Source: Acidobacteriota bacterium
GTDB lineage: Bacteria; Acidobacteriota; UBA6911; RPQK01; JADFOI01
Direction of reading: 5' to 3'
DNA: 64,000 nucleotides
NCBI GenBank assembly: GCA_963663035.1
Contig: OY760074.1
Location: forward strand, 3,258,967-3,322,966
The position numbers were made by a program, and so were the translations under genes. Positions 46,534-63,291 of the stretch are shown piece by piece; the stretch's first letter is position 1; the number at the start of each line of letters is the position of its first letter. The notes under the pieces were generated by a model. The model was not told where the DNA came from. It was given only the letters and a program-made list of their open reading frames with translations, and ran no database searches.

Positions 46534-46675
46534 CATGGGCTGCTCCTTTACAATTTCTCCACGCATAGACTTCACCTGCCCGATAGTCTAGCCTCCTCAT
46601 TAAAATAAAGATACACCTCCGCTTGAGTTTCCTAGGTGGACGAAAAGTGAACGGATGTCTTCACGAAAATGGCTC

Positions 46676-48043
46676 TTATCCTTGAACTTTCTCATCGGTC
46701 TTGAGTGAATACCAATCCACCTTCCGAGTTAGGTACATCACCCCGGCTAAGATCAGGAATAGACCGATTGACCCTACCAGCAGCGCGTAGTCCTGATTTC
46801 TTAGGAGAATGTAGAGATACAAATAGAGCGCTGTCAGGATAAAGCCCATTATCGAAGCGCGCTGTAAGCCGCCAAGGACTGCAGCACTGTACCCAAAGAT
46901 CAGAGCAACGACTGATGCCGTCGCGATAACGTATGCTGCAAGAAAACCGAGCTGTTCCGAAAGCGAGAGCTCAAGCAAATAAAAAAGACACATGCCCGCT
47001 CCTACAAGGAGGTATTGAAGCGAGTGGACGCGAATTCCAGCCAGCACTTCAAAGAGCCATAGTGATCCGAATGTTAGAAAGAGGAAAAGCGCTGAATACT
47101 TTACGCTTCGCTGGGCCATGCGGTAGTGATCGACCGGAGTGATGAGGTTCACACCGAATCGGGAGGCAGAGATTGCTTCGCCGACACTGGAACTGGAATC
47201 CCATTTCTGAGGATAATTCCTGCCAAGAGAAGGGATTTTCCATGTCGCCTCAAATCCATCTTTATCTATCGACCGATCCGTGGGTAGCCAGCTTCCCTGA
47301 AAACTCGGATCACTCCAGGTGGATTCAAGCTGCACGGTCGTATCTCGGCCGAAGGGCACAAAGAAAACGCCGACACTCCCATTGAGGGACAACGAAAAGT
47401 TGAATTCTCCGTTCTCGACTTGTGCAAGCTTTGCTACGGGTGCATGGATCCCGGGATCTGGAACTTCTGACTCACCTGGACCGGGGAGGAAGCCGATTTT
47501 CGATCCGTTCCAGGAGAGTGTTGCCTGCTCTTGAATTGATCGGGCATCAGAGATCTTGACCACCAGGTGCGATCGTTCCCACAAGATCTCGTCTGGCTCC
47601 ACCTCCCAATCGGAGAAGTCAGGTTGTCCAAAATCGCCGCTGAACTCGAGATCCAGCCGGTAGACCGGCACTTCGAAGATGCCCCGATACCGAACTTCGC
47701 TGGCAACCCTTCCGGAGATCGCCAAAGTGTTTGGAAGGAAGTGTGCGTACCCAATCTCGGTTCTTGTACGGGATCCTGTCGATGTCTCCTCAATCCATTT
47801 CTTGAGATACGGAACGATGAGTTTAGGGCCAACGATAGACTGCTCACCGCCCCACTTTCCGGTTACCTCCTCAATTGCCTCCGCGCGGGTCGATTCGCGT
47901 TCGCTGATCACACCACTAATCATCAAAGCTGGAATTTGAAGCAGTAGCACTAAGAAGACGATCAGTAAAATTCGAAGAAGCGGTAAGTTATTTCTTTTCG
48001 GACCGGTCATCGAATCTCCTTGTGGATCTCCAAGCTTGGCCAA
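46676..48043 (-). CDS. creD: inner-membrane protein CreD
   Basis: ISGVISERESTRAEAIEEVTGKWGGEQSIVGPKLIVPY aligns to E. coli CreD N-terminus; C-terminal TM cluster; low GC. Confidence 0.8.
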   Translation of the reverse strand: MAKLGDPQGDSMTGPKRNNLPLLRILLIVFLVLLLQIPALMISGVISERESTRAEAIEEVTGKWGGEQSIVGPKLIVPYLKKWIEETSTGSRTRTEIGYAHFLPNTLAISGRVASEVRYRGIFEVPVYRLDLEFSGDFGQPDFSDWEVEPDEILWERSHLVVKISDARSIQEQATLSWNGSKIGFLPGPGESEVPDPGIHAPVAKLAQVENGEFNFSLSLNGSVGVFFVPFGRDTTVQLESTWSDPSFQGSWLPTDRSIDKDGFEATWKIPSLGRNYPQKWDSSSSVGEAISASRFGVNLITPVDHYRMAQRSVKYSALFLFLTFGSLWLFEVLAGIRVHSLQYLLVGAGMCLFYLLELSLSEQLGFLAAYVIATASVVALIFGYSAAVLGGLQRASIMGFILTALYLYLYILLRNQDYALLVGSIGLFLILAGVMYLTRKVDWYSLKTDEKVQG

Positions 48044-48229
48044 AAATGATTTGCGCCGTAATAAGTGATTCTATCAGTATTACCGGGATCGTAATTTCCG
48101 AAGGCCCTCCTGACACGAGCGTCTTGGATGTGATAGAGCGCGAAGACAAGTTGTCAGGTTGCTCGAAGGTTTGACTCGTGACTTCTTGAGGCACACCTGA
48201 TGCACTCTGTGCCAGGCTGGAGGGAAACA

Positions 48230-48362
48230 TGGTGCCGGAGGGGGGAGTCGAAACCTCACGAGAGTCACCCTTCGCCGTATTTATGAAGTGAGCCACTAAG
48301 GTGAGTCCACTCGACTAGTGAAGAAAAGCTAATGTTTTCAATCGCTTCCCTGATTTATCGCC
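48230..48362. repeat. degenerate copy of tRNA-Leu 3' segment plus island arm (oldest att remnant), fused to a family-2-like motif
   Basis: TGGTGCCGGAGGGGGGAGTCGAAACCTCACGAGAGTCACCCTTCGCC then CGTATTTATGAAGTGAG (family-2 subterminal motif) then a diverged R-arm. Confidence 0.55.
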
Positions 48363-48620
48363 AATCATAAATAGGAAGAACGAGTTTTCGGAAGCCACCG
48401 GAAAGAGTCCTCACGCCTTGGTGGTGGGGTCATCCAGGATGTGTCGGGTTCGGGGAGGAAACGAGCATCGCGTACTACAAGCCAGCCTTGCGGAAGAGGC
48501 ATGCGCGAGAGTGTTCCTCTGCGCGTCACCCACTTCATAGCACCACGATCCTGGCATAGTCTTGCGAGCTCAAGTGTTGCCGTTGCATCGCGTGTGTTGT
48601 AATCGAGCACCTCAGCATGT

Positions 48621-49887
48621 TGACCTTGCCCCCTAAAACGAGTCCAGTTTGAATGTTAGGATTTCCGGTTTAGGAAGGAGGCAAGGATGGCAGGGAAGCG
48701 GTTTAGGGCAGAACAGATCATCATGAAGCTGCGTGAGGCAGAGGTGGGTCTGGCCCAAGGACAGAGGGTGGGACAGGTGTCGAAGCAGATGGGGGTGAGC
48801 GAGCAGACCTACTACCGGTGGCGCAAAGAGTACGGAGGGCTCCGGTTGGACCAGGCCAAGAGGTTGAAGGTGTTGGAGAAGGAGAATACCCGGTTGAAGA
48901 AGCTGGTGGCGGATCTGTCTTTGGACAAGCAGATCCTGAAGGAAGTGTCCTCGGGAAACTTCTAGGCCCGGCGAACAGGAGACGAGCGGTGATGTGGGTA
49001 CGAGAGCGATTAGGAGCAGAGCGAGTCTCCGAACGTCGGGCCTGCCAAGTGCTGGGACAGGTTCGATCGACCCAGCGAAGGGAAAGGCAAATTCCCGATG
49101 ATGAGGCCCGATTGGTGGCCCGGATGGTGGAGTTGGCTACGCAATACGGGCGTTATGGCTACCGGCGGGTCACGGCGATACTTCATGGGGAAGGGTGGAA
49201 GGTGAATCCTAAGCGGGTGGAGAGGCTGTGGAGACAAGAAGGGCTGAAAGTCCCGTCCAGACAGCCGAAACGAAGGAGGCTGTGGCTTAATGACGGTTCC
49301 TGTGTTCGGTTACGAGCGGCTCGCAAGAACCACGTCTGGAGCTATGATTTCGTGCATGAACGGACCCATGATGGGCGAGCCTTTCGGCTATTGACGATCC
49401 TGGATGAGTACACCAGAGAGTGCCTCGCCATTGATGTGAAACGGCAGATGAATCACCAAGACGTGTTGGACCGGCTGGCGGAGTTATTCGTTGATCGGGG
49501 AGTGCCTGAGTTTATCCGGTCCGATAACGGATCGGAGTTTACGGCACAGGCGGTCCGGGACTGGCTGCAGGCTGTTGGGGTAAGGACCTTGTACATCGAG
49601 CCGGGCAGCCCCTGGGAGAATGGGTACATTGAGAGTTTCAACGGGAAACTACGGGATGAGCTGCTGAACATGGAGATCTTCGACACGCTGGGGGAAGCCA
49701 AGGTGTTGGTAGAACGCTGGCGGAGGGATTACAATCAGATCCGGCCTCACAGCGCCTTGGCCTATCGGCCGCCGGCGCCAGAGGCCAAACTACCTAGGTC
49801 GCAGGCACTGGATCCAATCCCTTGGAGTGGACTTCAAATGGTCCCGGGTCTAGCATAGAGGGTGGACTCGTTCGTGGGGGCAGGTCA
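48621..49887 (+). mobile_element. IS3-family insertion sequence (1267 bp) with imperfect 27-bp IRs and 4-bp ATGT target duplication
   Basis: IRL TGACCTTGCCCCCTAAAACGAGTCCAG; IRR rc TGACCTGCCCCCACGAACGAGTCCACC; ATGT on both flanks. Confidence 0.8.
48687..49858 (+). CDS. IS3-family transposase OrfAB (HTH OrfA plus DDE/rve OrfB via -1 frameshift at G_GGA_AAC, 48953-48959)
   Basis: OrfA 48687-48965 with HTH and leucine zipper; OrfB rve core ...DNGSEF...; slippery heptamer in correct register; post-shift peptide [15 protein letters not shown] continues OrfB. Confidence 0.8.
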
Positions 49888-50437
49888 ATGTCGACCCTCA
49901 GCCCACAAGATAGGAGCCTTCGAGCCTTTAATCCCTGAATGCTTTCCCTTAATACCCATTCCCTGTGCCGCCTTGTCAAGACTAACTAAATGTCCCAGGA
50001 CGCAAACTGCGTGAAACATAATGTCAACGTGTCCAAGCGCTAGACTGGCGCACTCCTCGACTAGACCCGACTCTTCGGCAAGAATGTTGAAGTCAAAGTT
50101 CAGACCATTCCAGGTAAGGAGAGTGAAGCCGTTGTTCACCAGGTTAACCAAGTCGAGCACCATCCGCTTGCTCTCTTCATGGCTCATAGATTCCGCGGGC
50201 TCCCCAAGTTTGGAACGACCATGCCAAATAAGTGGTGTCGCATGATCTTCTCTTACCCCAGCTGCACAGCAGATCCCAAGTGGTCTGTGAGACAGTAGAT
50301 CAGATGTGGTCTCGGGTAGTACCTTAGCCGTTTCAAGATCGAATGCCAGATATTTCCTTTTCATCCTGTGAGGCTACGGCTTGAGTCTGGTCAAAGTTTC
50401 CTTGGTTGAGGAACGACAAACAAAATAAGGAAGATGT

Positions 50438-50707
50438 TCAACGGTAAGTCTTTTCACTCCCGGAGAGAATAGCAGAGATTATAATACGACGTGGGGGTTC
50501 AGAGAGAGGAACAAAAATAAGGCGATACCGACCAACGCGTTTACGGTATCGCCCTTCCCAACCCGCACCCTTAAGAGCCTTTGAATCACCAGCGAAAGGG
50601 TCTTTCTTGAGTGTTTCAATGGCCTTGCTAATGCGTTGCTGGGTGTCACAGGGGAGTTTGCGCAACTGCTTTACAGCGGTACGGGTAAGCTGGACTGACC
50701 AGGTCAT
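50438..50707 (-). CDS. type II toxin, RelE/ParE family
   Basis: 89 aa; ...RVGRYRLIFVPLSEPPRRIIISAIL; 4-nt gap to upstream antitoxin. Confidence 0.7.
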   Translation of the reverse strand: MTWSVQLTRTAVKQLRKLPCDTQQRISKAIETLKKDPFAGDSKALKGAGWEGRYRKRVGRYRLIFVPLSEPPRRIIISAILSGSEKTYR

Positions 50708-50711
50708 TTCG

Positions 50712-50975
50712 TTAGAGCTTTAATTCGGTCTTCACATCTTCCCAAGCCACAACCTCACCCCGTTGGATATCTTGTTCGGCCTTGCGAACAATGGCTTCCT
50801 CTTTTGCGGTGAGAACGTCATCAGGGTCTACAAGTTTCTTAGGTTTGATGACAACAGTACCGTTTTTTGCGTTCCGGACGACCTCAACGAAATCACCTTG
50901 CTTTAGGTTAAGCGCTTCACAAATGTCTTTAGGAATGACTACCTGACGGCGTTGACCTAGCTTACTAACAGGCAT
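50712..50975 (-). CDS. type II antitoxin, AbrB/MazE (SpoVT) family
   Basis: 87 aa; RRQVVIPKDICEALNLKQGDFVEVV swapped-hairpin motif. Confidence 0.7.
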   Translation of the reverse strand: MPVSKLGQRRQVVIPKDICEALNLKQGDFVEVVRNAKNGTVVIKPKKLVDPDDVLTAKEEAIVRKAEQDIQRGEVVAWEDVKTELKL

Positions 50976-51171
50976 AGTTTATGCCCTCCTTAAGGTTGGT
51001 GTTTGCCTAGTTATCATACTGTCAGATTCACAGATTGTCAGAAATACGTCAAGCGACGAGAGTTACAGGAATTATCCCCCACTGACTTGAGGTGCCAATT
51101 TGGAGCCTCAAGTCATCAAACTCGGAGATGGGGACGAAATGGGAACAGAAGCCTTCTGTTGTGGGAAAAGA

Positions 51172-51355
51172 TGGTGCCGGAGGGGGGAGTCGAACCCCCA
51201 CGAGAGTCACCCCTCACCAGATTTTGAGTTTGAGCTAAATCCACTCGATTTGTGAAGAAAAGCTGATATTTATCAACAGGTTCTCGGATTATTCACCAAT
51301 CCAAATAAGTGAAAGATGACGAAAGATTGAGCTTTCAACCGGGCCAAAAACGGGC
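51172..51355. repeat. tRNA-Leu 3' 61-nt direct repeat plus conserved ~125-bp R-arm (island junction, no L-arm)
   Basis: TGGTGCCGGAGGGGGGAGTCGAACCCCCACGAGAGTCACCCCTCACCAGATTTTGAGTTTG (59/61 identical to tRNA 3' end) followed by arm AGCTAAATCCACTCGATTTGTGAAGAAAAGCTGATATTTATCAAC... Confidence 0.75.
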
Positions 51356-51945
51356 AATAATAATCGGGTAGTAAAGGGATACAACAAGCTTAGTACCGAA
51401 AAGATTCGGAAAGCGTTAGGAATGTGGAGAGTCCATACCGTTGGGTTCCTCACCCAAAGACGCAGAATGCCCCCATCCATCTTTCTGATTCGTATATACA
51501 GCAGCTGATATTCCCTTCTAACCTCCCAAAGTCTTACTTAACATCTCGGAACAATCCGAGGGAGGCTCCGATGCTCGGGACGACCATTTTCCATTACCGC
51601 ATTCTGGAGAAAATCGGAGAAGTGAGGTGGGGGAAGTGTCTCGCGTGGAGGATACCAATCTGAAGCGACGGTATAACAGTGCCGTTCAGCGGCGAACGGC
51701 GCGTCTGCATGAAGCCCTTTTGGCCATAACCGCGCCGGTCGTCCGCTGCAACGGCGAGTTAGATGCCGGTGTCACGAAGTGCCAAACCCACAGCGCCAAA
51801 AGACCCTCATCTGACCCGTTTCCACCTTATCTGAAAGTGCGAAATCTAATAGTAAGCTCTGGCTCTCGCCACTAATATCCTCCACGATCATGCTTCATGT
51901 ATGATGCGGCGGGAGCCACATTTTTCCTTTTTCCACTCCGTGGCG

Positions 51946-52773
51946 TTAGCCAGTATCTTGGCCCCCATGACGGACCGCCACTAGTGGGCGTGGAAGACAG
52001 ATATCAACTTTTCTCTCAGTCTCCATAGTCAACCATAACTTCGGTAGAGGAAGCTTGCTAGTCGTGCTATTTTCCTTCTCTTCACAGCGTTCCTCCGCTT
52101 TTAAAGACGCTTCATAGGGCAATTTGGAGAGGAAAGAAGCCGAGAATAACTTAGAGGGTAAATCGTCTACGTTGATTTCAATCGAACCTCCCGGCGAAAG
52201 AAGTTGATCCACTTGATGGATGTACCCCTCTGCTTCGAGTTGTTTGACATGCACAGGGCAAGAGCCATGACTCTGGACTTGAATCGTTGAGGAGATCCTG
52301 AACTCACCAACCCGGCGAAAGTGAAGAAGAAAATCCAAATTCCGATTCACACGCAAGCGTTCCACTTCCTCGAAACTAAATCGTTCTTCTTGCCGAAGGC
52401 TCGAGTCCAAGATCTCAATCCACTGGGAGGAATACTCTTTTAGAATGCCTTCATACTCAACGGAAGTCTCCCCTTGCAATGCTTCGGCTACCACTCGATG
52501 ACCGATGTAACGCTCAAGAATAGGTTCAAAAGCATTTGGCACTGCTCCCAACACCATTTGACCCATCTGGTTCAAACGGGCATCCTGTGACTGCAAAACC
52601 GGTGATTCGACTGACCTCTTTGTTTTCGCTGCGATCACGCCAAATGATTGGGTCAATGCATCGCGAAAGGTATTTAAAAAACTCCGGAGACCTCGACGCA
52701 CAGAACGCCAGAATTTAGGAGGAGCAGCTCGCTCAATTTCTCGAATCCTCCGTCTTTGATTCTCTTGGGACAA
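51946..52773 (-). CDS. hypothetical protein (island cargo, low GC)
   Basis: 275-aa ORF; overlaps by 100 nt in another frame the upstream 130-aa membrane ORF 52674-53066, possibly one frameshifted gene. Confidence 0.35.
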   Translation of the reverse strand: MSQENQRRRIREIERAAPPKFWRSVRRGLRSFLNTFRDALTQSFGVIAAKTKRSVESPVLQSQDARLNQMGQMVLGAVPNAFEPILERYIGHRVVAEALQGETSVEYEGILKEYSSQWIEILDSSLRQEERFSFEEVERLRVNRNLDFLLHFRRVGEFRISSTIQVQSHGSCPVHVKQLEAEGYIHQVDQLLSPGGSIEINVDDLPSKLFSASFLSKLPYEASLKAEERCEEKENSTTSKLPLPKLWLTMETERKVDICLPRPLVAVRHGGQDTG

Positions 52774-53297
52774 CTCGTCATGATAACGGTAAATTGTCCG
52801 TAGGCGCGCCAGGTCGCTTTGATACAGAATAAAACTGGTCTCGATATGTCCCGCTGAGTCTGATGAGGCGTCGGATAAAGCAATTCAACACTGTTGAAAA
52901 AAACATTCAGGCGCCCCCAAACGCACTTACCGTCATTCATCTCGATTGTCACGTTGAAACCGGTGAAGTCGTTAAGGCAAAGATCTCGGCTTCGTCGCTG
53001 GATGTAAGTCCCTACCAGGGCCGTTACGAAAATAAAAAGAAGCGTGGCAATGAAGATTGAGTCCATAGCTTTTCAAGACCACCCTTTACACTACCAGGAA
53101 CAATGATCGCACCAACCGCCGCCCGCAGCACCCATCCAATGGTGCGAAGCTGAGCCGGAGGATATTTCCAATAGATTCACGCTCATTCACCCTCTTTAGA
53201 GAGAAGATTGACATTGTTGTGTTCGTTCTTGCGTCTTTGGGGCGGTAACTCTGTCTGTGCTTTGGCTCACATTCGTGAAGTCAATGCGGGGGCATCA

Positions 53298-53906
53298 TTA
53301 ATCGTTTTGACAGGCTTCACCTATTGTCTCCCCGAGTAGGCGTGTCAGGTCCTCGTTGTCGTATCTCATACCTCCCACGATTTCCTTTGCCCGTGATGAG
53401 AGTCGTTGATAGCCCCACGTACAACGGCTTTTGGTTTCCACGCAGCCTTCGCGTTGGTAGTACAAAGGCATGTTCACCTCAAAGAAGGAAATACTATCTG
53501 CATCTTTGAGCAGGTCAGAACGCGGATCACCTCCAACCTCATGAAGGGTCACCAACCGGCAAGCCTCGTCAGCCGTAGCTTTGGTTACACGGCACTTTTC
53601 CAGGATCGCTCCCAGAATATCAGCCCCATTACGCGCATGAGCAGCCTTGAAGGCGTCATAGTTGTCATAATGAGAGCGACGTACCTTTTGGGCTGTGACG
53701 GCTCGCTCAATGTCATGGGCGAGAGCGGCAATTTGCAATGCTTCGTCACTTTTGGGAGCGAGTCTTAACAGCCACTCAAGGGTATTTTCGGCATGGTGAG
53801 GGTCTTCTGGAACATCGGAGCCTGCAATAATCGCTTTGGTTCTTACTTTTGCGCATTCTATGCTATCCATGATCGCGGCAAACGATAACACGGCGGATGG
53901 TTTCAA
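53298..53906 (-). CDS. HD-domain phosphohydrolase
   Basis: H...HD motif (IAALAHDIER), 202 aa. Confidence 0.6.
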   Translation of the reverse strand: MKPSAVLSFAAIMDSIECAKVRTKAIIAGSDVPEDPHHAENTLEWLLRLAPKSDEALQIAALAHDIERAVTAQKVRRSHYDNYDAFKAAHARNGADILGAILEKCRVTKATADEACRLVTLHEVGGDPRSDLLKDADSISFFEVNMPLYYQREGCVETKSRCTWGYQRLSSRAKEIVGGMRYDNEDLTRLLGETIGEACQND

Positions 53907-55419
53907 AGTTCATCGCTATGGCAAGCACAAAGAGCGTCAAATAAGGCTGGTTGAATAGGGCACCTAAGAATATCAGCAAGAGTCGGAGGTCGCGGCCCAC
54001 ACGAAGTCCCTTGCCCCAACGGCCGAGCATGCGCTTGTCGTATTTGTCCGCGGTATAGCTCACCATGAAGGAACCGGTAATCGCCAGAAATCCAGTCAAT
54101 AGGATGAGGCTATCCAAATCGTTTGCGTAGGCGTGCCAGGTGAGGCCAAAAAGAAGGGCTGCGTCGGCATAACGGTCCAGGACCGCATCGAGCCATCCTC
54201 CGTAATGGCTGCTTTGGAACTTGAGCCGCGCTACTTCCCCATCGCATCCGTCGATGACCGAGGCGAACTGGACCAGCAAACCGCCCAGCAAAAGCATGGC
54301 ATAACTCCCCAGAGAAAACAGACCAGCGGCCAGTACCGAACACAGGAAGGAAAACAGGGAGATTTGATTGGGGGTGATCGGGTACTTCATCAATTGGCGG
54401 GAAATCCTTGCCGACAACGGTCGGTTGACGTGACGTGAGACAGGCCCATCGCTGGGCTTGTCCCCCAGATTAGCCAACAGCGCGTTCTCTGCCCGCCTAA
54501 AGGCCGTGGGATCATCTACGTCAATCACGAAGTAACCCCTAACCTCAACAGTTTTAACCCGATCCTGGCCGGCCAGGACACGCACCGCTGCGGACAGACT
54601 CGTATCGCCGTATTCCTTTGCGCAATACTCCAACGCATCAAAAATGGAAGGAGTGCAGAGGAAAATACCAGTGTCAAAGCCATTGAAGTCCGTCAAGCCC
54701 TTACCGATGTCACGTAACTTGTCCCCTTCCGTCTTGACTCGGGTGACATCCTCCATATCGATGAGGGGATTGCCAATATTACTGTCTACGCCCAGGATGA
54801 TTTCGCCGTCGGTTCGAGGAACCCTCATCAACTCGCGGGCAATGGTTGGATCAAAGAGATGATCCGCCATCAGCAACAGAAAGGATCCACGCAGATACTT
54901 CCGTGCCTTGAGCACCGAAAGGCCGTTTTCTTTTTTCCAGTCCTCGTTAACAATTGGGGTGATATGAACTTCCAGACGGTCGGTCAGACGGTTCAGAAAG
55001 TCTTGAACACGCCTCCCCTGGTATCCGGTAACTACATAAAAGTCATCCACTCCGGCCTCCAGCCCTGAGCGGATGACCCTTTCAATCAAGGGAACCCCTA
55101 AAATGGGGGTGAGCGGTTTGCAACTACCGTTCTGCCGTAGCCGGCTTCCCTCCCCAGCCGCGATAATGAGACACTTCACACTCACCGACTCAGTCGTTCG
55201 TGGCGCCCCAAGCGTGACCGCTAGCCCAGCGCAATCAGCTGGCATCTGTTTTGGAGTATCAGTGACAATCTCTGGCGATGGGCTTGCTTGGAAAACGGTC
55301 GAGTCCCGGCCCGGCTTAAAACTGCCAGGCGGTGTCAGACCCGTGCCCGTCGGTACCTCCAACACCCTTCGAGTGTTGGAGGTACCGGAACGAATCATGT
55401 GCAGCAGTGAAGTCCACAT
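53863..55419 (-). CDS. bifunctional sugar/inositol-phosphate cytidylyltransferase / CDP-alcohol phosphatidyltransferase (IPCT-DIPPS-like)
   Basis: N-terminal LIIAAGEGSRL nucleotidyltransferase motif; C-terminal DGCDGEVARLKFQSSHYGGWLDAVLD = D-x2-DG-x2-AR-x8-G-x3-D-x3-D CDP-OH transferase signature with ~6 TM helices. Confidence 0.6.
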   Translation of the reverse strand: MWTSLLHMIRSGTSNTRRVLEVPTGTGLTPPGSFKPGRDSTVFQASPSPEIVTDTPKQMPADCAGLAVTLGAPRTTESVSVKCLIIAAGEGSRLRQNGSCKPLTPILGVPLIERVIRSGLEAGVDDFYVVTGYQGRRVQDFLNRLTDRLEVHITPIVNEDWKKENGLSVLKARKYLRGSFLLLMADHLFDPTIARELMRVPRTDGEIILGVDSNIGNPLIDMEDVTRVKTEGDKLRDIGKGLTDFNGFDTGIFLCTPSIFDALEYCAKEYGDTSLSAAVRVLAGQDRVKTVEVRGYFVIDVDDPTAFRRAENALLANLGDKPSDGPVSRHVNRPLSARISRQLMKYPITPNQISLFSFLCSVLAAGLFSLGSYAMLLLGGLLVQFASVIDGCDGEVARLKFQSSHYGGWLDAVLDRYADAALLFGLTWHAYANDLDSLILLTGFLAITGSFMVSYTADKYDKRMLGRWGKGLRVGRDLRLLLIFLGALFNQPYLTLFVLAIAMNFETIRRVIVCRDHG

Positions 55420-55794
55420 TTCAGTTCTCCAAACACACTCGCACTCCGGTTGCAGTGCGGTCGAAGCAATTCATCTGACCGACTATGGTTCCGGACTTGG
55501 TGACTCGACACACCTGGTTTTGAGCTGCCTCTGTATCTTCTGCGTTGCTGTGCCTAAAAAGGAAAAAGAGGGGCAAGCTCTTGTGGTCTCCCCAGGGGAG
55601 AAGAGAGGTTCTTAACCGCCCTTATCTTCACCCGCCACCACGGCCCTGTCAAGGGGGAAGCGCTTTTCCGGTGATTCCTCCCGAACTGCGACCACTGGAG
55701 TCCTCTGATTAACAGACCGAAATAGGGGAGATCACAAAAGTAAGACGGGACGGAACTCTTTTGGTTTTTGACCAGATGGCTTGATTGTAAGCAT

Positions 55795-56196
55795 TAGGCG
55801 TGCTCAATAGTGGGCACAGTCTGGGCACATCACCCAACTAACTTACGTTTTATCAATAGGTTGAAATGCCGCACTAGATCTCCTGTCTGGAGAGCACCAG
55901 CTGAAACCCAAGGAATAAACGGGTTTCAGCCGATGTGGGAGACGGAGACAGGGGAGTCAGCTTTCTCGAGTCTGAAAAAGAGAGAAGACTTTTCTGGAGT
56001 GAAAACCATGGTGCCGGAGGGGGGGGAGTCGAACCCCCACGAGAGTCACCCCTCGCCAGATTTTGAGTCTGAGTGAGTTCCACTCGATTTGTGAAGAAAA
56101 GCTTATATTTATCAACCAGTTCCAGGATTCTTCGCCAATCCAAATAAGTGAAACATTACGAAAGATTGAGGTTTGAAGCGGGCGAAAAACGGGCGG
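55795..56196. repeat. composite island-junction repeat: ~210-bp L-arm, tRNA-Leu 3' 61-nt copy (56009-56071) and ~125-bp R-arm
   Basis: L-arm shared with 60447-60616 and 62929-63136 (GCTCAATAGTGGGCACAGTCTGGGCACA ... hairpin CTGAAACCC-AAGGAATAAAC-GGGTTTCAG); R-arm shared with 60678-60801, 51233-51355 and 48279-48362. Confidence 0.8.
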
Positions 56197-56664
56197 CGGG
56201 CACAAACCGCTTCCTTGTCATGTCTTGCCTCATTTTTAAATCGAAAAGCCTAACATGCAACCTGGACTCGTTTTAGGGTGTAAGGTCAATTTCTTGCGAG
56301 AGAATAGCCTTGATGCTGGGCTGAGTTATGATGAGAAAGATCATGAGAAGCGATTGGCAGAAGAATTTTCCTTGGTGGAAAGAAGGAAGAAGAAGAGGAA
56401 GAGGATAGGGACCCAGAAGAATTGAGGAGACGTCTTATCGAGCAACACAATCAGCAGACAAATCAAAAGTATCCAGAAATCTCCGCTGAACTTCTAGCCT
56501 TGTTATGAGACTGAAAGTGTAAGTAGTGTAATCAACCTAGAAACTGAGTCAGGTATCAGACTCGGGTTAACCGGATTGGGGATTTGCAGTCCGCACACGA
56601 TTCTTGGAGGAATGCGCTTGAACTTGGATACAACAATTTCAAAATTCGAGTGTGCTACTTCCCG

Positions 56665-58869
56665 CTAACCGCTCAGCCATGCCTGCAGAATGGCCTTGAT
56701 CTGGTTCCAAAAAAGGGCGCTCAGGAGCGCGACAGTGAGCAGAGCGGCCAGCAGGGCAACCAGGCCGACACGAGTCCAACGAAACACGCCGTATCCGGTT
56801 TGACGTAGAAAGAGGGTGACCAGGTCGCGGCGTTCCTTGCGTGCCCCTTCTGGCAAGTGGGGCGTGTGGCTGAAGAGATAGCCGAGCCGTCGCGTCATGT
56901 ACATGCGGAAATTCACCGCCCAGCCGCACGCCTCCAACAGAGCGCTCATGTCCCGCTTGCGCAGCTTGTTCCAACCCGAAAGTGCACTGAACAGGGCCAC
57001 CACCAGCACCAGGCTCACCAAGGCAATGCCGGCTTTCAGAAAGCTGATCTGCGAAAGTGTCTTGATCAGGTAGACCAGCGAGGAACCGACAGCGGCGAAG
57101 GCAATGCCGCCACCCAGCAGCAGGTCGCGCATGCCAGGGCTGGAAGGGGGTGCCGCTCCCGCCGATGGCACCTGGGTAGGCTGCTGGAGCGACTCGCCTT
57201 TTTCCATCTTCGTTGTGATCTCGGTGGTGGCCTTTTCCAGAGACCCGGCCCGGGTGCCTGCAAAGGCTTCAACCTTCTCGGAGAATAGCTTTTTTGCTTT
57301 CACAAAAGGCGACTTGATCGCCTCCCACAGGCTGATGGGATTCTCGACCATATCCACTACTCGTGCGTCCCACTCCTTGCCCTGCAGATCATAGAAGATA
57401 CCGCGCTTGCCAATTTCGAGGGCCCCCTGGCCGCCAGCCGTGAGGGCGGCGGCAATCTCGAAACTCCGCCCCTGCTCCTGGGGCATGGTGATCTCGGCGT
57501 ACACCAGAAACATCTTGCTGGTCTGGGCGATCTTCTTGTGCTCGGCGCGGTTTCGGACCTTCACTGTAAAGGCAAGTTCGCGGCCGTCAATGATCAGGTC
57601 GCCTAATTCAAACAGGGCACGGCGACTGGGGTCGTACAGCGCCGAGAAACTTACAAAGTTGTTGGCCAGTTCCAGGAGCCAGCGCTGGTACAGGATGAGC
57701 TTCTCCAGGTCAGTCACTTGCTTCACCTCATCCTTTACCGCCAGATCCTCCAGTAGGAGCTGGAGAAGTCTTTTCTGAGCCGGACCATCTAAGTATTCTT
57801 TCAGCGTGGTCTCACTCAACTCACTGACGCCATCCGATGGCTTCTCCGCCTTCCACGCACAATAGGGCTCGAAGATGGTCTTGACCTGCTGCCAGCCGAT
57901 CCGCGTGAGAGATTCGTGGGAGTCCGGCTGGGCACGGGCAAGGACCCGGTCTTGTAGTTCGTCCATCTGATCCTGGTAGTACGGATTGATGGGGCCCTGC
58001 AAGTTCAATACACCTTCAGCATTAGGCGTTTGCAGTGGCGCTTGCGCGAGCTGTTTTTCCATGGCCCCGAGGTCGGAGCCGTCCAGGTTTTGGAGATCTT
58101 GTTGACTCAGGCTGATCCGTTCGGCGGTGCGGGCATCGAGCTTTACCAGGTCGCACTGCCAGAAGAACTGTTCGATCTTGGCATCGAGTTCAGACGTGAG
58201 CTTCACGGCGGCCGCCGTGTCGTCGCCCCAGGGCAGAATCCCTGCCGCGCCGTCATCTTCGGCGAGTGCCTTCCAGGCCAGGTAATTCCTCACACCATCC
58301 AGGAATTGGCACAGGTGACCTTCGTTGATGCCGTCTGCGCCGCTCATATCCTTGGTACTGCCCACCTGCTCGAGTACGTCACTTGCCAACTGTGCCGCAG
58401 CCGGATCCGAAACGTGCTGGGGGGGGAGTACCCCGTCGCCGTTGGGAGGGGTCATCCCGTACGTATTCCGAAAGATGCGCACCTGTTCCAGGCTTATCTC
58501 GTCCAAGTTCTTGACCTTCAGTTGTCCCAGGATATGGATCGCGGCTTCCTTGAGCTTCCGGCCCTCCTCGTGGCTGGTATCCAGGTCCGCGAGGCGAAGG
58601 ACGTCTGAGGAATCGGCCATTCGGTCGCCTTTCGCTATCATACGGAACATCCATCTCACTGCCGCCCGCAAATGCTCGGCACGGATGGTCCCGCTACCGT
58701 CCTGATTCAAGTACTTGAGGAACGCGGGATCGCACTGTAGGCTTTCGATCTGCACGCTGGTGGCGGCCCAGCGAGCTGGGTGGAGCTGGTGGATGAAGGC
58801 AAGATCCTCCGCGCTCTCGATGCGCAGTTGGTGGATCCCGCCGTAATTTCGGAAGACAATGGGCTTCAT
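56665..58869 (-). CDS. large hypothetical protein (~735 aa) with C-terminal multi-TM region; no recognisable domain
   Basis: Start MKPIVFRNYGG with GGAG RBS; soluble acidic ~560-aa region then 3-4 TM helices; high GC. Confidence 0.45.
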   Translation of the reverse strand: MKPIVFRNYGGIHQLRIESAEDLAFIHQLHPARWAATSVQIESLQCDPAFLKYLNQDGSGTIRAEHLRAAVRWMFRMIAKGDRMADSSDVLRLADLDTSHEEGRKLKEAAIHILGQLKVKNLDEISLEQVRIFRNTYGMTPPNGDGVLPPQHVSDPAAAQLASDVLEQVGSTKDMSGADGINEGHLCQFLDGVRNYLAWKALAEDDGAAGILPWGDDTAAAVKLTSELDAKIEQFFWQCDLVKLDARTAERISLSQQDLQNLDGSDLGAMEKQLAQAPLQTPNAEGVLNLQGPINPYYQDQMDELQDRVLARAQPDSHESLTRIGWQQVKTIFEPYCAWKAEKPSDGVSELSETTLKEYLDGPAQKRLLQLLLEDLAVKDEVKQVTDLEKLILYQRWLLELANNFVSFSALYDPSRRALFELGDLIIDGRELAFTVKVRNRAEHKKIAQTSKMFLVYAEITMPQEQGRSFEIAAALTAGGQGALEIGKRGIFYDLQGKEWDARVVDMVENPISLWEAIKSPFVKAKKLFSEKVEAFAGTRAGSLEKATTEITTKMEKGESLQQPTQVPSAGAAPPSSPGMRDLLLGGGIAFAAVGSSLVYLIKTLSQISFLKAGIALVSLVLVVALFSALSGWNKLRKRDMSALLEACGWAVNFRMYMTRRLGYLFSHTPHLPEGARKERRDLVTLFLRQTGYGVFRWTRVGLVALLAALLTVALLSALFWNQIKAILQAWLSG

Positions 58870-59122
58870 AACGCACATTCTACTCCATTGCAGGGAATGT
58901 AAGGCAGTACGAGATCTGAACAGGTCAAGGCTCGGGCTTGGGCATGTGCAGCCGACACCTCTCCCTGACTTGGCTGAGTCCGAGAGGAAGGAAGAAGTTA
59001 TGAAAGGAGTCGTGCCAGCACGAGCAGGTTGTAGCTCAGGACCGAAAGGTGCGCGTAGCGCTGAAAGTGAGACCAAAGACCCGCTTGGCCATGGAGATGC
59101 AACCTTCAATGCCGGCTCGGAA

Positions 59123-60298
59123 TCACCTCAGCTGTTTGTAGACCCAACTGGATCGGACCAGGTCCTGGATTTTCGATCCTAATTTCTTGGCAAAGGCCAC
59201 GTCCTTGACGCCTTGCTTTTTGGCCCATTTGAGATTGCCCGAAGAAGCAAAGCCGCCATCCAAACTGGCCTGGCGAGGGTAACGCCCGTACAAGTCGCAC
59301 TGACGCTCCAGCAGGGGCTCGAGCTGTTGGCTGTCGGCTGGATTGCCTCTGAGCAAAAGAGCATCCAGGATCAGCGAGGACTTGCCAGCGGTCGGATAGA
59401 GCTTATGGCCAAAGAGGCTCTCGCGTGCGCCTTTTTCGATAATGTCGGTGTGTTCTTCAAAGATGGAGACGATCTTTTCGGTAGCCGGGACCTTCTGGCC
59501 CAGGATCACCCGACGGTGAGTTTGTTGGATCACTCGTCCCAGCAGATCCAGATGGTGGGCCAACGCACCGGCGCCAGGACTGGGCTGATGGGGTCCTGCC
59601 ACTGCGGTGCCTGCTCCAGTGCCCGGGTGCCGTAACCAAGGGTCCAGCCAGCGATCTTCAAGAGATCCCGATAATGCTTTTTGCGCTTCTCGCCCCGACT
59701 ATTTCAGATGTTCAAACAACGTTTTTTGGCATGTCTGGAATGATCCACAAAAGAGAGGGACTCAGACGGGTTCAACTGCTTTAAAAGGCGGGTCACGACC
59801 CGAATCGAATTGTAAAGCAACTGGCTATCGAGCGGATAGCGGATGTTGCTTTGGACTCCGGTGGCATCCCCTCGAATCTTACGCCCTTTTTCCAAACCTT
59901 GTCTTATCAGCCCAACTGACCAGCACCCGATTGACGGCCTGCCCAGTGGAGGCTTCAATCCGCGAGATGTTCTCCTGCAAGGTGGATTTGCTGGGGGTGA
60001 ACCCAAAGGGCAGCCGGCAGAAAGTCCGAAAGCTCTGCGAGTCGACCAGGTGAAAAGCCAGCTTTTCATAACTGAACTGGTGGGTTTGTTTGATCAGAGC
60101 ACAACGCAGGACTTGCTCAGCCGTCATGCCCCGGGCTCCCTTCTTGGAGCTGATTTTGTCACACAGATCGTGTAGAACGAGATCGGAGATCGATGGATTT
60201 TGATCCAGGATCTTGGAGATCGATTCCAGTTCCCGGGCCAGGCGATGATCGGGCCAAGAAGGGGAAAGAGGGAGTTGATTTTCTCGGTTCTTACGCAT
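59123..60298 (-). pseudogene. IS5/IS1182-like DDE transposase broken into three frames
   Basis: N-terminal fragment (59879-60298) has a transposase-like N-terminal region; middle (59704-60069) and C-terminal DDE-domain fragment (59123-59602) in other frames. Confidence 0.5.
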
Positions 60299-60446
60299 TT
60301 TCGGGCTCCTGGTTTTGTTTTAAGTCGTTTTTTTTATTGGTTTATACCAAATGACTTATCAAACGACCCCGACGAAATCAAGGCTCGAAAACGCGTACTT
60401 ACCCTTTTATTTCCAACCATTTACAGGATCCCGGATGGGATCTATC

Positions 60447-60801
60447 TAACTAACACTCTATCAATAGGTTAAAATACCGCACTAGATCTGCGGTCTGCAG
60501 AGGCACCCGCTGAAACCCAAGGAATAAGCGGGTTTCAGCCGATGTGGGAGACGGAGACAGGGGAGTCAGCTTTCTCGAGTCTGAAAAAGAGAGAGGACTT
60601 TTCTGGCGGGAAAAAATGGTGCCGGAGGGGGGAGTCGAACCCCCACGAGAGTCACCCCTCGCCAGATTTTGAGTCTGAGCTAAATTCACTCGATTTGTGA
60701 CGAAAAGCTGATATTTATCAACCAGTTCCCGGATTTGTCACCAGTCCAGAAAAGTGAAAGGTTACGAAAGATTGAGCTTTGAAGCGGGCGAAAAACGGGC
60801 G
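60447..60801. repeat. composite island-junction repeat: L-arm, tRNA-Leu 3' 61-nt copy (60617-60677, 61/61 identical) and R-arm
   Basis: See 55795-56196; tRNA-derived core is a perfect copy of 63137-63197. Confidence 0.8.
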
Positions 60802-60999
60802 CACTGTCTTGGTTAGACAGGGTTCATTCATTAGGTTACAAAGTGTAGGCCCGCCAAAACTCCGCCTCACCATAGAACGCAAAAGTCGAGTATTTGCGCT
60901 GACGCGTGGTCTGCAGAAGACGATGCTTGTGGACACCCCTGTAACGTAGTATTGTCCTTGTTGTAATTTCGGAACGGAATTGGAGGGACTCCAACCCCT

Positions 61000-62649
61000 A
61001 TGAATATTTTGCTCTATAACCCCGACAACCAGATGACGCGGAACTACATGCCCCATCTCTGGATGTTTGTTCTCAAAGCCCTGACTCCACGGCAGCATCA
61101 GGTGTTCCTGATCGATGGGAATGCCCAGCCCATCAGTGAGCAAGAGATGGCGCAGTTCATTCGAGAAAAAGAAATCCAACTGGTGGGCATCGGAGCCATG
61201 ACGCGAATGGCTGCCAGCGCCTACCGGATGGCAGATGCCATCCGCGCCGCCGGTGCTTTGGTGGTGATGGGAGGGCCCCACGTCAGCGAGGTGCCCGACG
61301 AGCCGATCGGACGAGAAGAGGAACCTCGCCACGCCGACGCCGTCGCTTTGGGTGAGGTTGACGACATCTGGGCAGACATCGTGCGAGATGCAGAGCGAGG
61401 TCAACTCCGGGAAGTCTATCGCCACACCGACGAGTCGGGCAAGGACATGAGGCCCTCGCTGGAGAACTACCCGGAGATCCCCTGGGAAGAGATCGATCTG
61501 AGGCAGTTCGACCTGCTAGGGAAGGTCCCGGCCTGGGGAAGATACCTCCTGAGACGGGTCGGCATGGACTGGAATAGTCTCTACATCCTTCCCGTCGAGT
61601 CGGGCCGCGGGTGCCCTTATGGCTGCGATTTTTGCACGGTCACAGGGTTCTTTGGCAAGTCGATCCGCTTTCGCAGCAACGAAAGCGTCATCAATGAACT
61701 TCTGCGCCTCAAAGCGCGGGCCGCTTCCGAGAAAGGCAAGGTGGGTGTCTTTTTTATCGACGACAACTTTGCCATCAACATCAAGCGAACCAAATCGCTG
61801 CTGCGGGACATGATTGCCCAGAATGCCACGCTACCTTGGGTGGCTCAGATCAGCATGAACCTGCTGCGGGATGAGGAACTGGTTGATCTGATTGCCCAGA
61901 GCGGGGGGCGTTGGATTTTTATGGGGCTGGAGTCGATCGATCCCGCGAGTCTGAAGGAAGTGAACAAGGGCTTCAATGATCCCCAGCAATACCAAGCCGT
62001 TCTTGATCGGCTGGCCAAACGGGGTGTCTACGCCATCACCTCTTTCATCTTCGGAATGGACGGAGATCGACCCGGAGTAGCCGACAAAACCCTTGAAGCG
62101 ATTGAGTCATGGCCTCCCGGCCTCCCTGTCTTTGGACTTCTCACCCCTTACCCTGCCACCCCCCTCTATGATCGTCTCCTCGAGAATAAGCGCCTCACGC
62201 GCCCCAAGCACTGGCTGGACTTTCGGCCTTTCCAGATGGCCTTCACACCGGAGCATATCAGTATCGAGCAGGCCGAGCAGGAGGTACGGCAGGCCTGGAG
62301 CCGCTGCTACAGCCCCGAAGCCATTGCCTCGGATCTGAAGAAACTCGAAGGACGCCCCTTTAACGAGCGTGCCGTCCTCTTTTTCACGCGGCTGGCTTTT
62401 CGCGGCATCTATTTCCCTCAGATGACCTTGAGGCAATGGCTGGGGTTGTTTTTCAGCAACGGCCGAAGCCTTCTGCGTCTGGTGGGAGAGGGTTTCGCGA
62501 CTCATCGCCGGCACCGGCGCAAGCAGCGCGAGACCTCTCCTGCTGACGGGTCGGTGAATCAGGCTAGTGGTGTCCCCTCGCCCGCTATTGGGATCGAGGC
62601 CACACCGGCGGGCCCCGTTGCCGAGCGCCCTGTGGTCGGCCGGACTTAG
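61000..62649 (+). CDS. B12-binding-domain radical SAM protein (class B)
   Basis: N-terminal cobalamin-binding Rossmann region; CPYGCDFC (CxxxCxxC) cluster motif; Arg-rich low-complexity C-terminal tail. Confidence 0.7.
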   Translation: MNILLYNPDNQMTRNYMPHLWMFVLKALTPRQHQVFLIDGNAQPISEQEMAQFIREKEIQLVGIGAMTRMAASAYRMADAIRAAGALVVMGGPHVSEVPDEPIGREEEPRHADAVALGEVDDIWADIVRDAERGQLREVYRHTDESGKDMRPSLENYPEIPWEEIDLRQFDLLGKVPAWGRYLLRRVGMDWNSLYILPVESGRGCPYGCDFCTVTGFFGKSIRFRSNESVINELLRLKARAASEKGKVGVFFIDDNFAINIKRTKSLLRDMIAQNATLPWVAQISMNLLRDEELVDLIAQSGGRWIFMGLESIDPASLKEVNKGFNDPQQYQAVLDRLAKRGVYAITSFIFGMDGDRPGVADKTLEAIESWPPGLPVFGLLTPYPATPLYDRLLENKRLTRPKHWLDFRPFQMAFTPEHISIEQAEQEVRQAWSRCYSPEAIASDLKKLEGRPFNERAVLFFTRLAFRGIYFPQMTLRQWLGLFFSNGRSLLRLVGEGFATHRRHRRKQRETSPADGSVNQASGVPSPAIGIEATPAGPVAERPVVGRT

Positions 62650-62928
62650 CCGCACCGGATATCTGCCTCCCTTCTGACCTACGACCCATTTCGAAAAACG
62701 GGTTCTCCTAAGCCCGTATTGGAAATTTCTCCGAGTCATTAGATATTCATTAAATGGAGGCCGTTTTTGGCCCTCTCAGGGTAGATTGGATTCTCGTAAT
62801 TTACTGATTCTATTGTGCCCGGTGGGGAATCCGCACCCTCACGAGGGAACGCTCCAACCGCTCCCCGGGCTGCAGTACGCACACAGTTCTGAGCAGAAAT
62901 GGTTTGATTTCAGGAATTAGAACAGGTC

Positions 62929-63136
62929 AATTGAGCTCAATAGTGGGCACAGTCTGGGCACACTTTCCCAATAAGTGTTTTTTTCAGAGACTTAAAATGC
63001 CGCACTAGATCTCCTGTCTGGAGAGCACCCTTGAAACCCAACGGGTTCAAGGGGTTCAGCCAAATACGGCTGAGGGAGACAGTCGAATGAGCTTTCTCGG
63101 ATTGTCAAAAGAGACAGAGGACTCTGGCGGGAAAAC
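62929..63136. repeat. L-arm copy adjoining the intact tRNA-Leu (proximal island end)
   Basis: Same ~210-bp arm as at 55795 and 60447, with the hairpin retained via compensatory changes. Confidence 0.7.
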
Positions 63137-63225
63137 ATGGTGCCGGAGGGGGGAGTCGAACCCCCACGAGAGTCACCCCTCGCCAGATTTTGAGTCTGGT
63201 GCGTCTGCCAATTCCGCCACTCCGG
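63137..63225 (-). tRNA. tRNA-Leu (anticodon CAA), class II with long variable arm, encoded CCA
   Basis: Manual fold: acceptor GCCGGAG/CTCCGGC, D-loop with GG, anticodon stem CCAGA/TCTGG, loop CT-CAA-AA, variable arm CGAGGGGTGACTCTCGTG, T-arm GGGGG-TTCGACT-CCCCC, discriminator A, CCA. Confidence 0.85.
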
Positions 63226-63291
63226 CGCGTGAAGGCAGTATAACCCGATGAATTCAAGGGGGCCAGGGGAGCGGAGGTCGAAAGCACGAAC

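Follow-up and report, generated by a model that had tools for sequence, protein, structure and literature searches.

Tandem integrase-less cassettes bounded by tRNA-Leu(CAA) repeats in an Acidobacteriota genome

We analyzed a stretch of 64,000 nucleotides from an Acidobacteriota bacterium (GenBank assembly GCA_963663035.1, contig OY760074.1, positions 3,258,967 to 3,322,966; hereafter the window, numbered from its first letter), which carries an array of four to five small inserted cassettes downstream of a tRNA-Leu(CAA) gene. An earlier note on this DNA, made from the sequence alone, had described islands stacked at this gene and marked by repeats of its 3' part. The tRNA is recognized by ARAGORN and Rfam, as the note had it, with its position on the minus strand shifted by 1 nt from the 63137-63225 given there. 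The gene, the repeated tRNA-derived sequence (the core) and the junctions J1 to J4 that contain displaced cores are the following, the conserved sequences beside the cores being called L-arms and R-arms:

63138-63226, minus strand: intact tRNA-Leu(CAA), the attachment gene and sole tRNA gene of the window (ARAGORN; Rfam tRNA, 58.4 bits).
63123-63198: core within the tRNA, 61 nt plus approximately 14 nt past the CCA end, forming an attL-type junction with L5 (repeat family; nhmmer, 85.7 bits).
60602-60677: junction J4, core matching at 61/61 between L4 of element C and R4 of element D (repeats, nhmmer).
55996-56071: junction J3, core flanked by L3 and R3, matching at 61/63 with an insertion of 2 nt in its G run (repeats, nhmmer).
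51157-51232: junction J2, core matching at 59/61, with the own, unrelated left flank of element A on one side and R2 on the other (repeats).
48215-48290: junction J1, the most decayed core, matching at 44/47 and degraded thereafter (repeats; nhmmer, 74.7 bits).

The 3' 61 nt of the tRNA are thus present in four extra direct copies, at 60617-60677 (61/61), 56009-56071 (61/63, the G-run being 2 nt longer), 51172-51232 (59/61), and 48230-48276 (44/47, followed by decay). Alignment, shuffling and nhmmer all agree with the four copies, the left-most one degraded, of the earlier note: a 26-mer of the core has 5 matches at up to 2 mismatches where 0 are expected (100 shuffles), and a profile of the five core copies scores 75-86 bits at each of them. 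The copies further share approximately 14 nt that follow the CCA end (CTGGnGGGAAAAnA), which extends the identity block to approximately 75 nt. Within the tRNA, this block starts 1 nt into the anticodon stem's 5' strand, and it continues through the CCA end and these 14 nt, the extent expected when the attachment (att) site spans the anticodon stem-loop to the tRNA 3' end. Core decay rises leftward, J1 being the worst, followed by J2 and J3, while J4 is intact. All five cores have the same orientation, and the locus therefore has the intact tRNA and the direct 3' repeat at the far end that define a tDNA island.

The cores are accompanied by long arms. An R-arm of approximately 125 nt lies to the right of all four displaced cores; the copies at 51233-51355, 56072-56195, and 60678-60801 are alike at 88-90%, and R1 (48299-48366) resembles them at approximately 80% over its first 70 nt or so. 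The L-arm, of approximately 150-200 nt, lies to the left of the 56.0-kb and 60.6-kb cores and of the tRNA. L3 (55802-55995) and L4 (60446-60601) are 94% alike, and L5 (62935-63122) is approximately 77-82% identical to both. Repeat alignments thus give the layout that the earlier note had drawn, with an R-arm only at J1 and J2, both arms at J3 and J4, and an L-arm only at the intact tRNA. Two or three hairpins occupy equivalent positions in the L-arms, with stem sequences that differ between L3/L4 and L5 (folding z-scores from -1.9 to -3.1), the L-arms also have the TGGGCAC direct repeat of 11-nt period, the end of the R-arm has a CGGGCG repeat with an 11-nt period, and an inverted AGCTTTC / GAAAAGCT motif, the sole 8-12-mer motif common to L- and R-arms, flanks the core. 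From their sequence and placement only, we infer that the hairpins, the period-11 repeats, and the inverted motif are candidate accessory or arm-type binding sites. Two other identities for the arms were tried and rejected: an intrinsic terminator conserved at the inner edge of the R-arm, for which a convincing hairpin exists in R3 and R4 only and none in R2, and a known RNA, for which Rfam returns the tRNA alone plus sub-threshold tRNA-like noise.

The cores divide the array into elements A to D, to which a CreD segment (segment Z) adds on the left:

60678-63122: element D, approximately 2.4 kb, with R4 (60678-60801), a B12-binding radical SAM gene (61000-62649, plus strand) and L5 (Pfam, NCBIfam, repeats).
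62935-63122: L-arm L5, the tRNA-proximal end of element D, with hairpins and a TGGGCAC direct repeat of 11-nt period (repeats; 95% conserved in L007, a related strain described below).
56072-60601: element C, approximately 4.5 kb, with R3 (56072-56195), the gene of a 737-aa protein, a decayed IS5-like copy and L4 (60446-60601) (repeats and annotation).
56665-58878, minus strand: 737-aa membrane-anchored protein of a large uncharacterized family, element C.
58941-60448: decayed IS5-like copy, element C, 88% identical to insertion sequence (IS) copies of the relative L001; it cuts off the distal end of L4.
51233-55995: element B, approximately 4.8 kb, with R2 (51233-51355), a minus-strand operon and L3 (55802-55995) (Pfam, NCBIfam, repeats).
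53863-55419, minus strand: IPCT/DIPPS-like bifunctional enzyme, element B.
53298-53906, minus strand: DUF4202/HD protein, element B.
52674-53066, minus strand: 130-aa hypothetical protein, element B.
51946-52773, minus strand: 209/275-aa hypothetical protein, element B.
48291-51156: element A, approximately 2.9 kb, with the diverged R1 (approximately 48299-48366), an IS3-split exonuclease gene and a toxin-antitoxin pair.
48365-48610 and 49885-50364, minus strand: RNase-H-like exonuclease gene of element A, in two parts.
48627-49887: IS3-family element in the exonuclease gene, with terminal inverted repeats and a 4-bp duplication (ATGT).
50438-50707: ParE/RelE toxin, element A.
50712-50975: MazE/AbrB antitoxin, element A.
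46624-48214: segment Z, CreD gene (46676-48010/48043, minus strand), absent from the empty site of the relative L061 (Pfam CreD).

Pfam and NCBIfam agree with the gene content that had been read from the sequence at first, with two corrections: the protein given as 735 aa has 737 aa, and the differences in G+C content between segments, which had been remarked upon, are small (0.51-0.55 in the segments against 0.55 in the rest of the window). The start of the array at 48230 did not hold either; relative to the empty site of L061, the inserted block comprises 46624-63137 and thus includes the CreD gene. Elements B, C, and D are each bounded on both sides by a core copy and conserved arms, and so retain both attL and attR, as is required of cis-mobilizable elements (CIMEs). 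Between segments only the arms are common, and tblastx comparison of the five segments detected no shared protein. The boundaries of the elements also appear in other strains: the left flank of element A, as present at J2, adjoins the intact tRNA in L001, element D lies directly beside element A in strains L007 and L056, and the sister strain L002 has an allele of the exonuclease gene without the IS3 interruption.

In the 64-kb window we found neither a recombinase of the tyrosine or serine type nor an excisionase or the pseudogene of an integrase, and the units contain no remnant of integrase, relaxase, or transfer genes. When recombination genes were sought with Pfam in 60 open reading frames (ORFs) of the window, which comprised all array ORFs of at least 100 aa and ten small ORFs, only IS transposases were obtained. 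The hypothetical proteins gave nothing in NCBIfam, PHROGs, or PADLOC. tblastn searches of the window with the integrases of L053 and L054 (sister lineages described below), the L054 excisionase, and XerD produced only an antisense-tRNA artefact, and a hidden Markov model (HMM) of 119 integrases run against the six-frame translation had a best E-value of 3.6. The claim of the earlier note that no recombinase lies in the array has thus survived the searches, including those of the 737-aa and 275-aa hypothetical proteins. Hence, the units lack integration and transfer genes, as CIMEs do, and also lack the internal integrase expected of a tDNA island. Two hiding places for an integrase were considered and rejected. 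Past the right end of the window, the upstream neighbors of the tRNA are a DUF4175-like 1145-aa protein and a BatA/DUF58/MoxR operon in all relatives. An SSV-type split integrase, in which the arms would be int(N) and int(C), was suggested by tblastn matches of the L053 integrase, which are antisense tRNA read as an over-called C-terminus. The last 32 or so codons of that integrase ORF (L053 13488-14744) run through the antisense strand of the tRNA and produce spurious protein matches to every junction.

That one of the cargo proteins is itself a new type of recombinase that mobilizes the units is, in our judgment, very improbable. The 737-aa, 209/275-aa, and 130-aa proteins would be the candidates, and they match nothing in Pfam, NCBIfam, PHROGs, or PADLOC. 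However, because only the arms are shared between segments, the units have no hidden recombinase in common, and strains with only elements A and D lack B and C. The 737-aa protein, which has no Pfam, NCBIfam, PHROG, or PADLOC model, gives a confident AlphaFold model (predicted local distance difference test score, pLDDT, of 88.8) that is helical and membrane-anchored, with three C-terminal membrane helices, and that has no significant Foldseek match in the PDB (none at E<0.1) and lacks the fold of a recombinase. The protein belongs to a very large family, with 1725 cluster representatives at E<=1e-3 (719 at E<=1e-30), and some relatives have an N-terminal EF-hand. Judged by its predicted structure, the 737-aa protein is cargo and not a recognizable recombinase. 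The single-sequence AlphaFold model of the 209-aa hypothetical protein was unusable (pLDDT 37.5). Among the three options first proposed, decayed elements, mobilization in trans, and an unrecognized recombinase, the last is thus disfavored by the lack of a shared protein and by the fold of the 737-aa protein, and mobilization in trans is favored.

Relatives of the window were found by look-up of its neighboring proteins in public assemblies, which led to long-read metagenome contigs of the same species. The A-B-C-D array is also present in three independent long-read samples: ERZ28669063 ctg99371, to which the window is 99.9% identical, and ERZ28763718 ctg125096 and ERZ25074053 ctg471289 (a circular 3.44-Mb contig), to which it is 99.5-99.9% identical, IS insertions aside. 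Because the same array recurs at this identity in three other samples, assembly collapse or chimerism is excluded, and with it the possibility, named in the earlier note, that the repeats are artefacts. Repeats of 200-400 nt can mislead assemblers, and contigs of short-read metagenome-assembled genomes (MAGs) do break at the junctions, but independent long-read contigs (1.2-3.4 Mb) assembled from different samples agree in order and junctions. A mere segmental duplication of the flank of the tRNA, with no mobile elements, would not account for segments between the repeats that are mutually unrelated, or for the empty site and alternative arrays described next; artefact and duplication together retain a negligible probability.

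The comparison with related genomes called for by the earlier note yielded both an empty site and other combinations of elements, as expected of a tDNA island that is absent from relatives with an uninterrupted site. In L061, the homologue of window positions 46623-45172 follows 25 nt after the tRNA, and the whole array and the CreD gene are absent. L001, a more distant relative, has only element A, beside the intact tRNA, and L007 and L056, which are approximately 98% identical strains, have A and D only. In the latter, the A|D junction is exact: the left flank of element A is followed by a perfect core and the R-arm of element D, and the switch from A-type to D-type sequence occurs inside the core. 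The difference in B and C would be either a one-step loss, through excision or equally through RecA recombination between repeats, or an insertion at an internal core. No autonomous element was found in or beside the array in eight genomes.

The att sequences are not restricted to this species. Using a degenerate R-arm pattern, we found three more Acidobacteriota species representatives with a near-perfect 61-nt core and an R-arm that is approximately 90% identical, each beside a different left flank: the gene of a TonB-dependent-type outer-membrane protein (L009), a symporter gene (L010), and a third sequence (L011). On a metagenome contig (L035), a 93%-identical element B with its L-arm is joined through the core to the R-arm element of the L011/L009 type and not to element C. 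One R-arm element with three or four different neighbors is as expected from site-specific insertion at the tRNA in different genomes. The element adjoining in L011 (X), of which 7.5 kb are visible, encodes a Na/Ca exchanger and DUF2207, LemA, and ankyrin proteins. A scan of metagenomes with a 17-mer of the L-arm gave 40 matches, of which 3 were real. Altogether, six or seven distinct units are known, and every member of the arm family has been seen without an integrase. An objection foreseen in the earlier note was that the arms might be ordinary tRNA-flanking sequence. The downstream flank of the tRNA in L061, L052, L053, and L054 shows no similarity to the arms, and because it lacks them in these relatives while core and R-arm recur beside unrelated flanks in other species, these comparisons indicate that the arms are DNA of the elements and not an ordinary tRNA flank.

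Sister lineages were reached from the conserved DUF4175-like gene upstream of the tRNA. In L054 (92% identical in the DUF4175-like protein), a 363-aa tyrosine integrase ends 49 nt after the tRNA; next come a gene for an HTH_17 excisionase-like protein and one for a DUF3631 protein. In L053 (78% identical) a tyrosine integrase adjoins the tRNA, and in L052 (77% identical) an integrase pseudogene cut by an IS3 follows it. The presence of integrases directly after the tRNA in these three lineages indicates, from gene content and position, that in this clade the 3' half of tRNA-Leu(CAA) genuinely serves tyrosine integrases as an attachment site. IMG/VR yielded no relatives of the L054 integrase.

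We consider it probable that the array arose through serial integration at tRNA-Leu by a tyrosine integrase acting in trans on non-autonomous, CIME-like cassettes. Each unit would once have existed as a circle whose attP consisted of L-arm, 75-nt tRNA-derived core, and R-arm, and a tyrosine integrase would recombine the core of the unit with the tRNA gene. Since the identity block starts at the anticodon stem, the crossover most likely would take place in the anticodon loop; integrases whose strand exchange occurs in that loop are reported (Williams 2002) to be recognizable by an identity that extends from the anticodon stem to the 3' end of the tRNA. The tRNA would be rebuilt from the core of the incoming unit, with the L-arm downstream, and the old 3' end would be left beside the R-arm at the far end. 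Repeated integration would produce a stack with the older units (the CreD segment and A) distal and the younger ones (B, C, and D) proximal, an order matched by the graded decay of the cores and by the stronger divergence of R1. The history proposed in the earlier note, serial integration into the reconstituted tRNA with the oldest element to the left, gains support from the empty site, the alternative arrays, the exact A|D junction, and the decay gradient. Because B, C, and D consist of arms and one cargo operon and nothing else, the integrase would come from elsewhere: units that share the arms would carry a single unrelated cargo operon and be served by an autonomous relative or another resident element. 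The array could also shrink or reshuffle by recombination between any two cores. The tyrosine-integrase chemistry, the position of the crossover, the supply in trans, and any present mobility of the units are what we infer from these comparisons.

Alternatively, each unit may have been an autonomous island or prophage that lost its integration module by deletion, with help from IS elements, which are very active in this species, leaving an array of strict CIMEs that is now immobile. This origin is possible but clearly the less likely one. It is the standard route to CIMEs (PMC5704250), IS3, IS5, IS1595, Mutator, and IS4-type copies vary between strains at the locus, and remnants consisting of an integrase only (L053) or of an integrase pseudogene cut by IS3 (L052) lie beside the same tRNA; the older cores are decaying, and element D is inherited vertically. 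However, no integrase or excisionase pseudogene fragment is left in any unit, and three units keep both arms, the same boundaries, and compact single operons, so that several independent clean deletions would be needed. In addition, the autonomous elements at this tRNA have the integrase end 49 nt from it, where the units carry a non-coding arm of 150-200 nt, and the R-arms are approximately 90% identical across species while the cargo is unrelated.

Within the proposal of serial integration in trans, the units might further belong to a dedicated Acidobacteriota family, in which a conserved attP surrounds one exchangeable cargo operon that never encodes an integrase and that is captured serially at tRNA-Leu(CAA) in trans; we advance this only tentatively. 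A fixed, integron-like platform, where an integrase resident in the host chromosome captures promoter-less or single-operon cassettes with attP arms at the tRNA, seems unlikely to us. Small units (2.4-4.8 kb) with unrelated single-operon cargo between conserved arms, the lack of an integrase in every family member seen, and a toxin-antitoxin pair in the array, as in large integron arrays, would fit such a platform. But in eight genomes the site has no integrase to its left or right, attC-like structures are lacking, the cargo runs in different orientations, the distinct units known number only six or seven, and nothing sets the platform apart from ordinary mobilization in trans.

Several observations weigh against serial integration in trans. 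An integrase with matching arms is absent from the window and from the ±10 kb flanks in eight related genomes, the visible 7.5 kb of the L011 X element contain no integrase, and the arms were not found in viral contigs (IMG/VR) or in plasmid or phage collections. The integrase-bearing elements of the sister lineages lack the L- and R-arms of the array and have different arms, and among the 120 closest relatives of the L054 integrase, not one is listed on a long contig of the species to which the window belongs. Element A has a core at both ends with arms of the R type only and a different L side, and a decayed att site was not recognized at the left edge of the CreD segment, where nhmmer found nothing and the MAFFT alignment was ambiguous. 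The L-arm is composite: its distal half is also found without a tRNA core in L043 and L014, and part of it may not be an att component. Element D is approximately 98.3% identical between strains with A and D and strains with the full array, which is the same as the identity of the chromosomal flanks; D was therefore inherited vertically and predates the strain split, and the array looks stable. Finally, RecA deletion is possible between 200-nt repeats that are 88% identical, and thus the polymorphism of B and C is no proof of integrase activity.

The array is a further example of a known phenomenon, the tandem accretion of non-autonomous islands, and does not represent a new type of system. 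It is well known that islands can stand in tandem with repeats of tRNA or tmRNA 3' ends as their boundaries (PMC4383910). Among the closest cases are the ssrA islands of Dehalococcoides; 15 of the 31 have no integration module, and for these a status as cis-mobilizable elements was proposed (McMurdie et al. 2011, PMC3146451). There, too, tandem islands follow one small-RNA gene, each with a direct 3'-end repeat and extra conserved nucleotides, a given strain never has the same island twice, and strains differ in how many islands they carry. They differ in their target (tmRNA, entered at the T-loop and repeated over 20 bp, compared with tRNA-Leu(CAA) and a repeat of 61-75 nt from the anticodon stem), in their arms, which are much longer here (125-200 nt), and in their recombinase: a CcrB-like serine recombinase is present in half of those islands, whereas no unit described here has one and the neighboring lineages use tyrosine integrases. 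CIMEs keep attL and attR, have lost integration and transfer genes, and can excise as composites (Pavlovic 2004; Bellanger 2011; reviewed in PMC5704250). Streptococcal CIMEs of the ICESt1/ICESt3 type are likewise att-flanked without such genes, and their tandems form by integration into a resident att site. However, they are defined as products that arise when integrative and conjugative elements (ICEs) or integrative and mobilizable elements (IMEs) decay, and are mobilized in cis by an adjacent ICE, while the array has no ICE or IME, no decay remnants, and no conjugation genes, and all of its units are integrase-less. A precedent for mobility in trans is the microcin H47 island of E. coli, which excises and integrates through trans-acting functions of the host background, a 'parasitic strategy' (Azpiroz et al. 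2011, PMC3191183). It is also small, has extensive imperfect direct repeats, and encodes no recombination proteins, but it is single, has other att sequences, and its mobility was demonstrated experimentally, whereas mobility would be deduced here from comparison.

Prochlorococcus tycheposons (Hackl et al., bioRxiv 10.1101/2020.12.28.424599) resemble the array in that integrations at the same tRNA push older elements inward, leaving partial tRNAs and degenerate remnants, and in their adaptive cargo; their hallmark tyrosine recombinase and replication modules are both absent here. In tDNA islands as found by Islander and TIGER (PMC4383910, PMC12424338), an intact tRNA and a displaced 3' fragment also bound the island, and tandem arrays are recognized, but this software needs at least one integrase gene per island and would not call the array (PMC12424338). 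The array is not an integron either, as no intI flanks an attI site with attC cassettes and the junctions are tRNA-derived cores with long arms, nor does it match integrative mobile elements exploiting Xer (IMEX), which use XerCD and a dif-like site, because its repeated core is the 3' part of tRNA-Leu. It is distinct from these precedents in its phylum, its target tRNA-Leu(CAA), its long conserved arms, and the absence of an integrase from all units of the arm family seen.

The locus offers a population-level view, from long-read metagenomes, of a place where genes come and go frequently in a lineage of uncultured Acidobacteriota, an under-studied phylum. Among its cargo are a large uncharacterized membrane protein, a B12 radical SAM enzyme, an IPCT/DIPPS-like enzyme for a compatible solute, and a toxin-antitoxin pair. 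It illustrates that att-flanked units without an integrase can make up an entire array; finders that need an integrase gene per island (PMC12424338) miss such arrays systematically. It also provides a defined attB/attP with conserved arms for a phylum short of genetic tools, usable for site-specific integration once the cognate integrase is found. Mechanistically the array is unsurprising unless its units do form a dedicated cassette family; in that case they would be a tRNA-targeted functional analogue of integron cassettes, invisible to island finders that require an integrase.

Some further observations concern the cores and arms. Element D contains, in the interval that separates its radical SAM gene from L5, a weak match to the core in the same orientation (62811-62847; nhmmer, E=0.13). 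This stretch is also a 78% match to the tRNA 3' end of L052 and may be a sixth, heavily decayed junction, which is suggestive only. In L009, the displaced core is broken by a 25-nt insertion (CCGCCTTCATCTGAGCGAAGCGAAG) in the T-arm region (positions 3786-3810 of the MAG contig JAZFRU010000135). The distal half of the L-arm (TGGGCAC twice, through to AAAATGCCGCACTAGATCTCCTGTCTGG) is found at 62935-63025 and 55802-55898 of the window, at 893-1119 of L043, where it follows a 96%-identical 3' end of the radical SAM gene and similarity ends within the first hairpin, and at 1653-1746 of L014, where it follows an unrelated ORF. Within it, TGGGCACAGTCTGGGCA matches the GG-N10-GC spacing of sigma-54 promoters, and this sigma-54-like motif is a further putative arm-type site. 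The start of the R-arm (56072-56090 and 60678-60696), read on the tRNA strand (…AAATCGAGTGGAAyT…), resembles a shortened 5' half of tRNA-Leu (GCCGGAGTGGCGGAATTGG), and Rfam gives a sub-threshold tRNA-like match over the core and 14 nt of R3 (26 bits, E=0.18). A complete copy of the tRNA may have been part of the ancestral attP.

Others concern the cargo and the left edge of the block. The 53 nt directly after the stop codon of CreD (46623-46675) form, on the minus strand, a hairpin (GTGAAGACATCCGTTCAC) with TTTTCG behind it. This segment is 90.6% identical to L014 1823-1874, approximately 80 nt from the L-arm-like motif there, although L014 lacks the CreD gene. The exact sequence of the radical SAM protein of the window is not on record. 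Synthesis of di-myo-inositol-phosphate is usually a trait of hyperthermophiles; the IPCT/DIPPS-like enzyme encoded on the mobile cassette scores 272 bits against the Thermococcales equivalog, under its 580-bit cut-off, and its gene is truncated by an IS4-type insertion in two strains. Just inside R3, 56223-56299 resembles the left end of the IS3 in element A (48610-48686) and IS3 ends in L053, and is probably, from this resemblance, a solo IS3 terminal remnant. The IS content of the locus varies in every strain examined, against a background identity of 98-99.9%, with IS3, IS1595, IS4-type, Mutator-type, and IS5-type copies that are each strain-specific and that occupy 48627-49887 in the window, 11508-12449 in L002, 1338-2732 and 15299-16543 in L003, and 4658-5839 in L007.

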